Source of the DNA: Escherichia coli O157:H7
GTDB lineage: Bacteria; Pseudomonadota; Gammaproteobacteria; Enterobacterales; Enterobacteriaceae
DNA length: 64,000 nucleotides
Assembly: GCF_013167455.1 (NCBI RefSeq)
Contig: NZ_CP038332.1
Strand: one strand, 5' to 3'
A program made the position numbers. Positions within the stretch are counted from its first letter, which is position 1; each line of letters starts with the position of its first letter. Below, one piece after another: positions 50,501-53,500 of this stretch.

Positions 50501-53500
50501 GCATACGACCATAACGATCTCGCTGAAAATATGTGACGGTAACCGTTTTTCCTGCAACCAGTGATTTCATCATGTCTGTCGACCACCGGCCATAATCCTG
50601 TTTCTTTTCCGGCGCATCAATATTTACCAGCCTGATCCGCACCGCCTTCCGTGAGTCCATGACCTCGATGGTATCACCGTCCAGTACACGAACAACCCGT
50701 CCATGAATATCTGCACACAATACCGGCCATGAAAAGATAAATAATACCAGTGGAATATATTTCCTCATGTTATTCTCCGTATCAGATAAATAGCACCTGT
50801 ATTTCAGGCATCCTGAATATTGCAGCACACACTTAATAACACCTTATTTTGTGAAATTAATCACAAAATATAAAATCACGACTTAATACGGAAAAAACTC
50901 TGTGCTACTCAGAACTGGCCGGTCATACTGCCCGACCGGATATTAAAAAAAGCAAATCTCATGCATTATTCAGCCTTCTGAATCCCTGGAGTAATGAAGG
51001 CTGCTTTTTTCGTTACCCCCTTCCTCGGCAGCGCCGGTGGCAGTGTTCAGCCCTTTTTCGGGCAAACTGCTGCCAGTCAGTCCGGGGTGCAACACCGGCA
51101 GCCCGTCGCCATGCTTCTGCCGCTTCCATCCAGCGTCCACTGACTTCCAGAATAACGGCCCGGCTTCCGGCACGCTGGTAACGCCAGACCTGACCGTTCC
51201 GTGAACTGTTTCTGAATCCATTCATCTTTATCACTCCTCTTTAACCCGTCAGTATTATGGTGTTAAATAATCTACTGAATTGGCTTCCTTTCGGGTACGG
51301 AAGTTATTTCCTTTTAAGCCTTATTTCCCTGCCTCCTCTCTCTGAGGGAGGCTTTTTTTATTTCTCATCAAGCACGGCCTGAAGTTCTGCCTTTATCCGG
51401 TTCTGGCGGCGGATTTTATCCAGACGCGCTGCCGCATACGCTTCCTCCTCCTGAGAAATATGCTCCGTCACATACCCTTCCGTGTCATACCGGCAGGCAC
51501 CGGCTTTCATGGCACACAGATAGCTTTCTGAACGGGTGATGGCCTTCAGCGCCCTGCGCAGCTTTTTATGCGAGAGCGGGATATTCCGCTGCGCCACGTC
51601 TTCCAGTAACACGTCCCGGATACCGCAGGCCAGAAGCCGGGGCGTGTCACCGTCAAATAATCCCGGCCACCAGGGTTTCAGGGTGTTCACGGCCTCATCC
51701 TGCGTGGGCAGGTTCAGATAAATGGACAGCGCCTGTCTGGCCTGCGCTTTTTTTGCCGCCAGCTCCGCTTCCCGGGCTGCTTTCTCGGCCAGCTTCTGCT
51801 TTTTCACCTTCCATTTTGGTGGCGTGGTGACATTGATGATGGTTTTCCGGCTGCGGACAGGCGTCTCTCCTTCCGTTTTCCGCTTCAGTGTCAGTACCGG
51901 TCGTTTTTGCTCTGCCATGCTTACTCTGACCTTCGTGAAAATATGCCCTGCAGGCCGTTGAAACGGCTCATCGTAACAGGAAGTTAATTTCAACGACCTT
52001 TAACGTATAAATACTGACAATTAAAGATATTGTTTAAACCATTGTGTCTGCACAGCTACTACACGTTCAAAAAACGCGCCCTCATAAATATCATAATGGC
52101 ATGCATCAGCTTCCTCGTATAATTCCTTAGTACCAGAAGCAACAGCATCATATAATGCTCTTCCCTGTTCCGGTGGATTAACGCTATCCTGGCCGGCAAT
52201 AACAACCAAAACTGGGCACTGGACGCTGGCTGCACTCTCTGCCGGTTTATATTGCAACGTTTCCATGACCGTAAGGAAAGGTATTTTTATATCCATTTCG
52301 GGATGCCGGGCTTTGATTTTCTCGAAGAATACCTTCGATTCATCATCACTTAGTACCCGTGTAACCCCCACAAACATCTCTTTCCCGGTGTTTTTCTTCT
52401 TCTCTGCCATTTTATTCAGCGTGGATAGAAAAGACGCTCTCTCCGATTCATTCATCTCTCCGGTAACCAGAACATCACCGTCAGCAAAAGCCAGCTGGCT
52501 GACAATACATTTTACGCGTTGGTCCTGCGCAGCTGCACTGAAGACATGCCCCCCTCCCAGCGATGTTCCCCATAACCCAATACGCTGATTATCAATACAT
52601 TCCTGCTTTTCTGCCCAATTGATAACTGAAATAATATCTTCGGTCTGCATTGCAGGAACCAGACGCCCTCGTTCTCCATCACTCTCACCGAATCCTCGAT
52701 AATCAAAAGTAATCGTTGCGAATCCTGCTTCTGTGAAGGCATTCGCAAAGCAAGGGAGCAGAACATTCCTGATACCGCAAAACCCATGGCATAAGATAAT
52801 CAAAGGATGTTTTATATTTCCTTCAGGAACACGAAATGTCAGGGCAATACCTTCAGAGAGTTTGTGATCCGTAATTTTCATAAATATCCTGTGTTATGTT
52901 GTTTATTAATAAGCAGAATCAGCGTCAGTATCATACCAGTCACAACGCCAGAATGCCCAGCACAGCCAGATGACAGCCATAGAACGTCGGGAAAAAATCT
53001 CCGGGCCAGAAACGGGGTAATGATTTCCCTGCACAGGACACCAGACCAACGGTCAGCACCGTCATCACAAGACCAGCTACAGCCGCCGCATCACTGGAGG
53101 CAAGGTTAAGTGCCGGAATCACGGCCAGCAGGCATGCAACCAGCACCAGACGTTCCGTTCTGTCTTCCGCCCGGTACAGCCGGTGGCTGACTGCCAGCAT
53201 CAGCAGCCCGGCAATGCCGTAACTGGTGCCGGACAAAGGCCCCCACAGTGCCATCAGGAGAATGGCCGCTGCTGTACGCCACCCACTGCGCGTTTCACAC
53301 CACGTCAGCACCTGTGCCGCCACTGCAAAGGCAAACAGGATATTCCCCTCATACCACGGAAAGCCTGCCAGATAATACGCGAACTGGGCAATAATTCCCC
53401 ATCCCCACAGCCGGTTAATGGCCGACTGCCTGATATGCGCATGGCGGGACAGATTCAGCCCCCACACCAGAGCAAACAACGGAAAGGCTCCACGCCCGGC

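Follow-up and report, generated by a model that had tools for sequence, protein, structure and literature searches.

The intergenic region upstream of the thermonuclease-like gene of pO157, the plasmid of Escherichia coli O157:H7 Sakai, contains a perfect inverted repeat, and the question is which protein recognizes this repeat and with what consequence for the neighbouring genes. The window analysed here is the whole stretch of 64,000 nucleotides of this plasmid (NZ_CP038332.1). The initial annotation had seen in the repeat a strong candidate operator for a dimeric repressor controlling the nuclease. One part of this view stands, namely that a binding site for a dimeric factor lies upstream of the nuclease gene, whereas the dedicated repressor must be given up, because the core of the repeat is an exact consensus for cAMP-CRP, a global, sugar-sensing regulator, and CRP was shown to bind the identical 22-mer in vitro.

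Results

The repeat, TATTTTGTGA-AATTAA-TCACAAAATA (50845-50870, unstranded), was read directly from the sequence. Its arms (50845-50854 and 50861-50870) are fully complementary and are separated by a 6-bp spacer, AATTAA, which is itself not palindromic. It had been described as a perfect 10-bp inverted repeat 77-102 bp upstream of the nuclease start codon; re-reading confirmed the repeat exactly, and the distance agrees with the gene coordinates (ATG at 50768, minus strand). Its placement in the promoter, also part of that description, is an assumption. If arms of 10 bp or longer and a spacer of 0-20 are required, the window contains 6 distinct perfect inverted repeats, this one among them, compared with 1.7 in dinucleotide-preserving shuffles of the whole window. 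Taken as a bare inverted repeat the palindrome exceeds chance only weakly; taken as a match to a specific motif, that of CRP, it does exceed chance. A search for the same palindrome elsewhere, proposed with the operator reading, found no recurrence in the window beyond chance: the two arms are the only exact copies, and with one mismatch the 10-bp arm has 11 matches vs 7.1 expected.

Within the repeat lies a 22-bp cAMP-CRP site, TTTTGTGAAATTAATCACAAAA (50847-50868, unstranded), recognized by its exact core, its PWM score and a published EMSA on the identical 22-mer. The 16-bp core (50850-50865, with the dyad between 50857 and 50858) is the sole exact TGTGA-N6-TCACA in the window, where 0.075 would be expected. 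With a PWM made from 107 chromosomal ChIP-seq sites the palindrome scores 14.49 bits, the highest value in the window (runner-up 12.03); it ranks 37th against those 107 sites (median 13.03), which places it in the top 35% of in vivo-bound sites. FNR sites have the form TTGAT-N4-ATCAA and CRP-S sites carry a TGCGA pentamer. Both readings were rejected, because the N6 spacing and the TGTGA pentamers fit CRP instead. We are highly confident that the palindrome is a CRP site.

As a CRP site the pO157 palindrome is real, yet it is already known from the orthologous locus of p666, the plasmid of ETEC H10407. S1 Table of Haycocks et al. (2015, PLoS Pathog 11:e1004605, PMC4287617) lists ttttgtgaaattaatcacaaaa, with ETEC_p666_0090 as target, as the top-scoring site and as 'Bound in vitro: Yes'; its score of 13.78 is a PREDetector score, the highest on the ETEC plasmids p666 and p948, and binding was assayed by EMSA with purified CRP. 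A full-text literature search found no occurrence of the site string in main texts; it is present in the supplement of the ETEC paper. The 22-mer is identical in the two plasmids, the core lies 82 bp from the ATG of the orthologous thermonuclease gene in both, and the gene order RepA, Hha, nuclease, ANR, FinO, TraX is common to them. In the 103 bp from site to ATG they differ at 3 positions, all outside the site. Judged by sequence, the p666 site and the pO157 palindrome are the same element on sister IncF backbones, and since the identical site had been shown to bind CRP in the sister plasmid, the palindrome is not novel. The plasmids differ in host, p666 being from ETEC and pO157 from EHEC, and the CRP binding and occupancy data all come from p666; moreover, p666 has a second, decayed copy of the site upstream of a PIN gene, whereas pO157 has no such copy.

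CRP ChIP-seq in ETEC grown in M9-fructose, a CRP-active condition, gave no peak on any plasmid (Haycocks et al. 2015, PMC4287617). H-NS occupies the region upstream of the p666 nuclease gene in vivo, and all five ETEC plasmid sites that were bound by CRP in vitro are covered by H-NS (Haycocks et al. 2015, PMC4287617). With CRP signal missing and H-NS bound, use of the site in vivo may be rare or may not occur at all. In pO157 the CRP site lies in an AT-rich trough (GC = 32.5%), which fits H-NS occupancy.

The gene downstream of the repeat (50307-50768, minus strand) encodes a thermonuclease-like protein of the SNase family (Pfam SNase, E=7.8e-31; 'thermonuclease family protein' in PGAP). It is named yigB in pS88 and ETEC_p666_0090 in p666, and its ATG is preceded by the Shine-Dalgarno sequence GGAG (50778-50775). 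The product had been called a secreted nuclease: it has the conserved SNase motifs DGDT, IDAPE and YGR together with a signal-peptide-like N-terminal segment, which makes export plausible. In qRT-PCR on pS88, yigB did not change significantly between LB, serum and urine. The plasmid hha gene, encoding an H-NS co-repressor (50052-50261, minus strand; Pfam HHA, E=7e-24), follows 45 bp downstream; there is no consensus promoter or terminator between the two genes, and hha possibly belongs to the same transcription unit as the nuclease gene. The upstream neighbour is a small ORF of the ANR family (51013-51225, minus strand; PGAP; NCBIfam NF033650, 37.3 bits vs cutoff 32), named yigA in pWR100 and pS88. 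No HTH or RHH family match, and hence no gene for a DNA-binding repressor, was found among the neighbours of the palindrome, which encode the ANR-family protein, Hha, FinO, the nuclease and one further protein, whose match to DUF2726 is weak and sub-threshold.

Any CRP-dependent promoter of the nuclease gene is to be sought in the DNA separating the CRP site from the ATG (50769-50844, minus strand). Neither a consensus scan nor a sigma70 PWM with textbook frequencies, which is only heuristic, found a convincing nuclease promoter. The best-conserved -10-like element in the heuristic promoter scan is an extended -10, TGc(A/G)ATATT, at 50824-50816, which puts the dyad at -48.5. A TGAAAT -10, lacking A-11, puts it at about -62 to -65, with a spacing that differs from plasmid to plasmid by 0 to +2 bp; the indels between site and ATG are confined to the DNA downstream of 50816. 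CRP canonically activates with its dyad at -41.5, -61.5, -72.5, -82.5 or -92.5, and in the nuclease direction we found no -10 element placing the dyad at such a position. In glucose-containing TSB, dRNA-seq of Shigella pWR100 detected no transcription start in the nuclease direction, as expected for a promoter that is CRP-dependent or silenced by H-NS. The text of the EHEC transcriptome and Cappable-seq papers contains no usable plasmid TSS rows, and Salmonella pSLT was rejected as a source of TSS maps, because the nuclease that it carries at this position is of the PLD type and the DNA upstream is not homologous.

The opposite strand carries AS-pc02 (Rfam RF02876; 50932-51116, plus strand; full length, cmscan 205.2 bits vs a gathering score of 40), an RNA reportedly described from plasmid pHK01. 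It is antisense to the 3' part of the yigA/ANR ORF, and the palindrome lies outside it. The sole experimentally mapped transcription starts nearby drive this RNA: the pWR100 starts 105556 and 105547 (dRNA-seq) correspond, with a constant offset of 54619, to positions 50937 and 50928 of the window, 70-80 bp from the dyad, which stands at -79.5 from the primary start (50937) and at -70.5 from the secondary one (50928). The -10 element of AS-pc02, CATACT (50924-50929, plus strand), is invariant in 21/21 versions of the region.

These 21 IncF plasmid versions, which are hand-picked and not independent, are 72-100% identical. The palindrome is part of the conserved IncF backbone that separates yigA from yigB, and no other block of the intergenic region varies as little in this set: the repeat has a diversity of 0.033 (pentamers 0.019, spacer 0.079), compared with 0.114 and 0.083 for the two flanks. 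The half-sites are kept while the spacer is free to vary, a pattern that points to purifying selection on the half-sites relative to both spacer and flanks. The natural variants of the site all score at least 13.7 bits, with the exception of a TATGA variant (9.4 bits), which is found upstream of the PIN gene, not the nuclease gene, and for which no CRP binding was obtained in vitro (Haycocks et al. 2015 S1 Table, PMC4287617). All 255 records of the PIN-linked copy are at least 95% alike and represent one lineage; the association of an intact site with the nuclease gene therefore counts as one event. The intergenic region occurs in about 3,700 of 72,556 plasmid records. A scan of genome contigs for relatives of the nuclease protein yielded 4 close ones, on contaminant or plasmid contigs, and distant ones with unrelated upstream DNA; these did not serve for footprinting, for which the hand-picked plasmid records were taken.

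Discussion

On balance we favour the view that the palindrome is a site of high affinity for the cAMP-CRP dimer of the host, through which the nuclease unit (possibly a nuclease-hha unit) is under catabolite control, and that it is normally masked by H-NS. Carbon starvation would then be coupled through CRP to transcription of the nuclease gene and possibly also of the downstream hha and 112-aa genes. CRP would activate a weak promoter situated between its site and the Shine-Dalgarno sequence, and by analogy with estA2 it could do so only when silencing of the AT-rich region by H-NS, assisted by Hha, is relieved. The more specific statement, that the role of the palindrome is activation of the nuclease unit, we make tentatively.

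The most serious objection to catabolite control of the nuclease is that the site, although real in vitro, might have no function in vivo: a fortuitous match, permanently masked by H-NS and conserved only through the low divergence of the backbone. The missing CRP peaks on the ETEC plasmids, the H-NS cover over all five sites, the lack of a promoter at canonical spacing and the unresponsiveness of yigB on pS88 would all be accounted for. However, the repeat is markedly less variable than both flanks and has conserved half-sites around a free spacer, its variants retain high PWM scores, and the masked estA2 site proved functional once H-NS was removed, thus we regard a functionless site as unlikely. 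It is also conceivable, with a smaller probability, that the CRP site serves the plus strand, exerting Class I-like control on the AS-pc02 promoter and thus on yigA/ANR rather than on the nuclease. The mapped starts near the site are all on that strand and agree with the 5' end of the Rfam match at 50932, -70.5 is a known Class I position, and the DNA between site and promoter is nearly free of indels. Against this, transcription from the primary start proceeds in glucose medium and is hence CRP-independent, and at -79.5 the dyad misses the helical phase by about 3 bp; at the secondary start a -10 cannot be recognised (TGGCCG). In addition, the PIN-linked copy keeps the AS-pc02 side although its CRP half-site has decayed, which means that AS-pc02 does not need the CRP site.

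The nearest viable version of the operator is one in which CRP itself represses by occlusion, the palindrome overlapping AT-rich core promoter elements of both strands. On the plus strand these are TTGTGA-16-TAAAAT (50849-50876; 9/12 match, dyad at -25.5), on the minus strand TTTTCC-17-TATATT (50895-50867; dyad at +2.5), the -10 of the latter being conserved in 20/21 versions, and the overlapping hexamers are the best sigma70-like matches of the region. Such matches are, however, no more frequent than in shuffled sequence (1 found vs 1.2 per 800 bp), and the plus-strand -10 loses T-7 in 3/21 versions. A strong promoter under an operator should reveal its start when CRP is inactive, and in Shigella grown in glucose TSB, where CRP should be off, no start was seen at either predicted position, though H-NS silencing could explain this as well; we consider occlusion improbable. 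That a dedicated dimeric repressor, encoded by the plasmid, controls the nuclease gene through the repeat as its operator has in its favour that the inverted repeat is perfect and lies upstream of the gene. Considering that the arm sequence does not recur in the window, that the neighbourhood offers no candidate repressor gene, and that CRP, whose binding was demonstrated for the identical site, accounts fully for the sequence, this reading can practically be dismissed. Hardly more credible is the proposal that the palindrome acts not as a DNA site but as an RNA hairpin in a minus-strand transcript, either yigA read-through or a long 5' UTR of the nuclease mRNA. A folding energy of -10 kcal/mol (z = -4.9) was computed for the 10-bp stem, and the 3 natural arm substitutions all keep minus-strand pairing (two G.U, one compensatory A-T to G-C). 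But these three events come from two sequences, by chance alone about every second transition would preserve pairing, and the resulting p of ~0.03 is post hoc; there is no U-tract or other known RNA element context, and direct protein-binding data exist for the DNA site (p666). Alignment folding supports neither this hairpin nor an anti-Shine-Dalgarno helix, because the covariation term is negligible (-0.33) and there are no double-compensatory pairs among 18 versions.

Such a helix is one part of a more elaborate scheme, in which the CRP site, the H-NS modulators on either side (ANR/YigA upstream, Hha downstream) and anti-Shine-Dalgarno pairing would form a gated switch, so that carbon status and xenogeneic silencing jointly time production of the exported nuclease. 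Read-through transcripts from yigA would carry 50897-50885 and sequester the nuclease Shine-Dalgarno sequence; a start dependent on CRP, located downstream of the CRP site and accessible only with H-NS displaced, would yield a short, translatable leader; and co-expressed plasmid Hha would feed back on H-NS silencing. We offer this switch as speculation, with a low probability of being correct as a whole.

For pO157 the gain is one of annotation rather than new biology, the identity of the site having been published for the p666 locus. What the comparison brings out is a widespread IncF backbone module, in which a CRP site of consensus strength adjoins the gene of a putatively exported nuclease and a plasmid hha. 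A functional site would tie both the plasmid nuclease and the H-NS co-repressor Hha to the carbon status of the host.

It is instructive to compare the palindrome with known CRP targets. The consensus E. coli cAMP-CRP site is AAATGTGATCTAGATCACATTT, and CRP acts in the Class I mode at lac and in the Class II mode at galP1. The palindrome shares with canonical sites the exact TGTGA/TCACA pentamers, the 6-bp spacer and the A/T-rich flanks, whereas it has TTT/AAA for AAA/TTT in the flanks and AATTAA for TCTAGA in the spacer; canonical sites also stand at fixed distances from their promoters (-41.5, -61.5, -72.5 etc.), and for the palindrome no promoter so placed was identified. On F-like plasmids (pRK100) CRP controls traJ, which makes traJ a second CRP target of the IncF backbone, with another gene and function than the nuclease site. 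The traJ site also bound CRP in vitro, with a score of 11.1 (Haycocks et al. 2015, S1 Table, PMC4287617); the traJ region is absent from the tra remnant of pO157 near the nuclease locus. A further parallel is PestA2, the promoter of the ETEC heat-stable toxin gene analysed in the same study. For estA2 a transcription start, Class I activation and exclusion by H-NS were demonstrated, whereas the data for the nuclease locus are EMSA and ChIP occupancy. Like the p666 nuclease locus, PestA2 is plasmid-borne and AT-rich, with a high-affinity CRP site that is covered by H-NS and free of CRP in vivo, and this masked site becomes functional after H-NS removal (Haycocks et al. 2015, PMC4287617). If the nuclease site is functional too, it would provide another case of horizontally acquired DNA in which H-NS decides whether a global activator gains access.

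The inverted repeat contains a consensus CRP site

The inverted repeat at 50845-50870, TATTTTGTGA-AATTAA-TCACAAAATA, has 10-bp arms that are complementary without mismatch, and it is located, as the initial annotation had it, 77-102 bp upstream of the nuclease start codon (ATG at 50768). Taken only as an inverted repeat, it does not stand out: the window holds 6 distinct perfect repeats with arms of 10 bp or more and spacers of 0-20, with 1.7 expected from shuffled windows used as control. The other five are at 986-1022, 20422-20461, 34859-34882, 42306-42328 and 57584-57605, the last being a spacer-poor 22-bp palindrome, ACATTGATGATATCATCAATGT. 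No further copy of the arm occurs in the window. The striking property is the repeat's own sequence, which includes an exact cAMP-CRP consensus core, TGTGA-N6-TCACA (50850-50865), the sole occurrence in the window, where 0.075 would be expected by chance.

With a symmetric PWM derived from the 107 CRP ChIP-seq 16-mers of Haycocks et al. 2015 (Table 1), the site scored 14.49 bits, the best value in the window (runner-up 12.03), which is above the median of the in vivo-bound sites (13.03) and corresponds to rank 37 of 107 in that set. The runner-up, TGTGACCGGAATCGAA at 1479-1494 (12.0 bits), is about one bit below the same median. The identical 22-mer, ttttgtgaaattaatcacaaaa, is listed in S1 Table of Haycocks et al. 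2015 with a score of 13.78 and ETEC_p666_0090 as target; it was the highest-scoring predicted CRP site on plasmids p666 and p948 of ETEC H10407, and is marked 'Bound in vitro: Yes' on the basis of EMSA with oligonucleotides spanning the site through the start codon. We are confident that the palindrome is a CRP site. The initial annotation had proposed an operator for a dimeric repressor of a secreted nuclease; binding of a dimeric regulator agrees with the published EMSA with the identical 22-mer, whereas the dedicated repressor has to be given up, the regulator being the host's global CRP. That some plasmid-encoded repressor dedicated to this locus binds the palindrome is scarcely credible.

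Genetic context

Over 601 bp around the repeat the sequence matches plasmid pO157 from E. coli O157:H7 Sakai with 100% identity (AB011549.2; position x of the window corresponds to 121435 - x in that record). The locus is IncF backbone, extending from the end of the tra region to the RepFIIA replicon. All genes near the repeat are on the minus strand, and are read in the order traX, an alpha/beta hydrolase gene (52021-52881), finO (51358-51918), yigA (51013-51225, a 70-aa ANR-family ORF, so named in pWR100 and pS88), the SNase-family nuclease gene yigB (50307-50768), hha (50052-50261), a 112-aa ORF (49676-50014), repA2/copB and repA1. The gaps between nuclease and hha (45 bp) and between hha and the 112-aa ORF (37 bp) are short and contain no consensus promoter or terminator, thus the three genes could form one operon. 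Two genes of H-NS-related modulators flank the CRP site, the ANR-family gene upstream and hha downstream.

Conservation among plasmids

Of 72,556 plasmid records, 3,746 contained the intergenic region; most of these were conjugative IncF plasmids from Escherichia, Shigella, Klebsiella and Salmonella. In an alignment of 21 versions picked to cover 72-100% identity, a small, hand-picked and non-independent sample, nucleotide diversity was 0.033 in the repeat, 0.019 in the two pentamers and 0.079 in the spacer; it was 0.114 in the 76 bp between repeat and ATG and 0.083 in the 99 bp on the opposite side. Conserved half-sites around a free spacer are as expected for a dimeric protein site. The 22-mer was identical in 16 of the 21 versions, and four others had changes but still scored at least 13.7 bits. 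In the single decayed version (TATGA...TCACA, 9.4 bits) the gene downstream encodes a PIN-domain protein (record L046; ETEC_p666_0110), not the nuclease, and the TATGA variant did not bind CRP in EMSA (Haycocks et al. 2015). The yigA/AS-pc02 side of this PIN-linked copy is still well conserved, thus the intact site appears to go with the nuclease, not with the antisense RNA AS-pc02. Because the PIN-linked copy represents one lineage (255 records that are 95% or more alike), this association counts as one event. In this lineage (p666 4186-6174; L046) the module of yigA and intergenic region is duplicated and diverged (72% identity), with the PIN-domain gene downstream.

Transcription starts and promoter candidates

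The best available start-site data are from dRNA-seq (±TEX) of Shigella flexneri M90T grown in TSB to OD600 0.3 (Cervantes-Rivera et al. 2020, Table S3). The pWR100 locus is orthologous, with an exact core at 105469-105484 (constant offset to the window 54619), and an IS interrupts its nuclease gene. ReadXplorer start calls are plentiful, about 2.7 per CDS, and single calls warrant caution. On the plus strand a primary start at 105556 (window 50937) and a secondary one at 105547 (50928) are consistent with the 5' end of AS-pc02 (Rfam RF02876; 50932-51116, plus strand, 205 bits), which overlaps the 3' part of yigA. In the AS-pc02 promoter region (50892-50937) the -10 hexamer CATACT (50924-50929) was invariant in all 21 versions, an A6 tract occupies -45 to -40, and the CRP dyad is at -79.5 from the primary and -70.5 from the secondary start.

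Two plus-strand hairpins were seen nearby. The first (50971-51010) resembles an intrinsic terminator, CAGCCTTC...GAAGGCTG and then a T6 run, and falls within the interval that Rfam assigns to AS-pc02, directly ahead of the yigA stop codon. No other block of the region is as well conserved (diversity 0.015). Its presence suggests a shorter version of AS-pc02, about 75 nt long, with its end there. The second, a strong terminator-like hairpin at 51331-51352 (within 51279-51368), GCCTCCTCTCTCTGAGGGAGGC followed by T7, adjoins the finO stop codon and would imply an unannotated plus-strand transcript running antisense to the 5' part of yigA; an Rfam suhB/mmgR match at 51279-51368 was weak and non-significant (E=0.38).

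Minus-strand starts were reported within yigA (105768) and, as primary, at 105332 (window 50713), 55 nt downstream of the nuclease ATG and within the ORF; its -10 is poor, thus RNA processing or a spurious call may account for it. The same TSB data list no start on the minus strand from the site to the nuclease ATG, and none at the two promoter-like sequences overlapping the palindrome, TTGTGA-16-TAAAAT (plus strand, start near 50883) and TTTTCC-17-TATATT (minus strand, start near 50860). TSB contains glucose and CRP should have been largely inactive in those cells, thus the missing nuclease start fits a promoter that is CRP-dependent and/or silenced by H-NS.

No nuclease promoter could be placed from the sequence at a canonical CRP distance. 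An extended -10, TGc(A/G)ATATT (50824-50816), keeps a constant distance from the site in 21 of 21 versions and would put the dyad near -48.5. For TGAAAT (50806-50801) the dyad would be at about -62 to -65; A-11 is absent, and spacing varies by 0, +1 or +2 bp among versions. All indels of the alignment are downstream of 50816, thus any unit of CRP site and promoter with fixed geometry must fall within approximately 50816-50889.

Possible role of the site

In the ETEC ChIP-seq experiment no CRP peak was found on any plasmid in M9-fructose, a CRP-active condition, and all five plasmid sites bound by CRP in vitro were within DNA bound by H-NS in vivo (Haycocks et al. 2015); the orthologous p666 region was shown to be H-NS-bound without CRP. 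The pO157 site is in a local AT-rich trough (32.5% GC, window 46%), whose composition is compatible with H-NS binding. By analogy with estA2 (Haycocks et al. 2015), we tentatively favour, at somewhat less than even chances, that cAMP-CRP activates a weak nuclease promoter downstream of the site once H-NS silencing is relieved; activation might reach hha and the 112-aa ORF. On pS88, qRT-PCR detected no significant change of yigB between LB, serum and urine. It is unlikely, if conceivable, that the site is permanently masked and functionless. Class I-like control of AS-pc02 is rather improbable: in the PIN-linked lineage the AS-pc02 side was conserved although the CRP half-site had decayed. CRP acting as an occluding repressor is distinctly improbable; the silence of the overlapping promoter-like sequences in glucose-containing TSB argues mildly against repression of a strong promoter there.

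Selection could also have acted on a minus-strand RNA hairpin, whose stem is stable (-10 kcal/mol) and whose pairing is retained by 3 of 3 natural arm substitutions; these are, however, three events in two sequences, alignment folding gave no real covariation, and we consider this very improbable. A further predicted minus-strand structure is a long-range helix pairing 50897-50885 with 50785-50773 (132-nt fold, z = -4.1), which in transcripts starting upstream of about 50897 would sequester the nuclease Shine-Dalgarno GGAG (50778-50775). One of its pairs occurs as GU, GC and AU across plasmids, a pair is broken in two Shigella versions, and no double-compensatory change was found among the aligned versions; comparative support for the helix is weak. 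That the nuclease is controlled by a gated circuit combining CRP, H-NS/Hha and this anti-Shine-Dalgarno helix, on which the idea depends, is improbable.

Comparison with other plasmids

Salmonella pSLT has another nuclease family, the PLD-type PSLT002 (94-1155), in the same backbone slot between finO and the replicon, and its upstream DNA is unrelated. In p666, ETEC_p666_0090 is the orthologous thermonuclease and the gene order is shared with pO157. The distance from core to ATG is 82 bp in both, and the 103 bp from ATG to site differ at three positions, none within the site. The repeat is a real, correctly placed feature, and a known CRP site accounts for it: because it is the same element as the site upstream of ETEC_p666_0090, its identity is already published, and for pO157 the assignment is an annotation transfer from the p666 locus.
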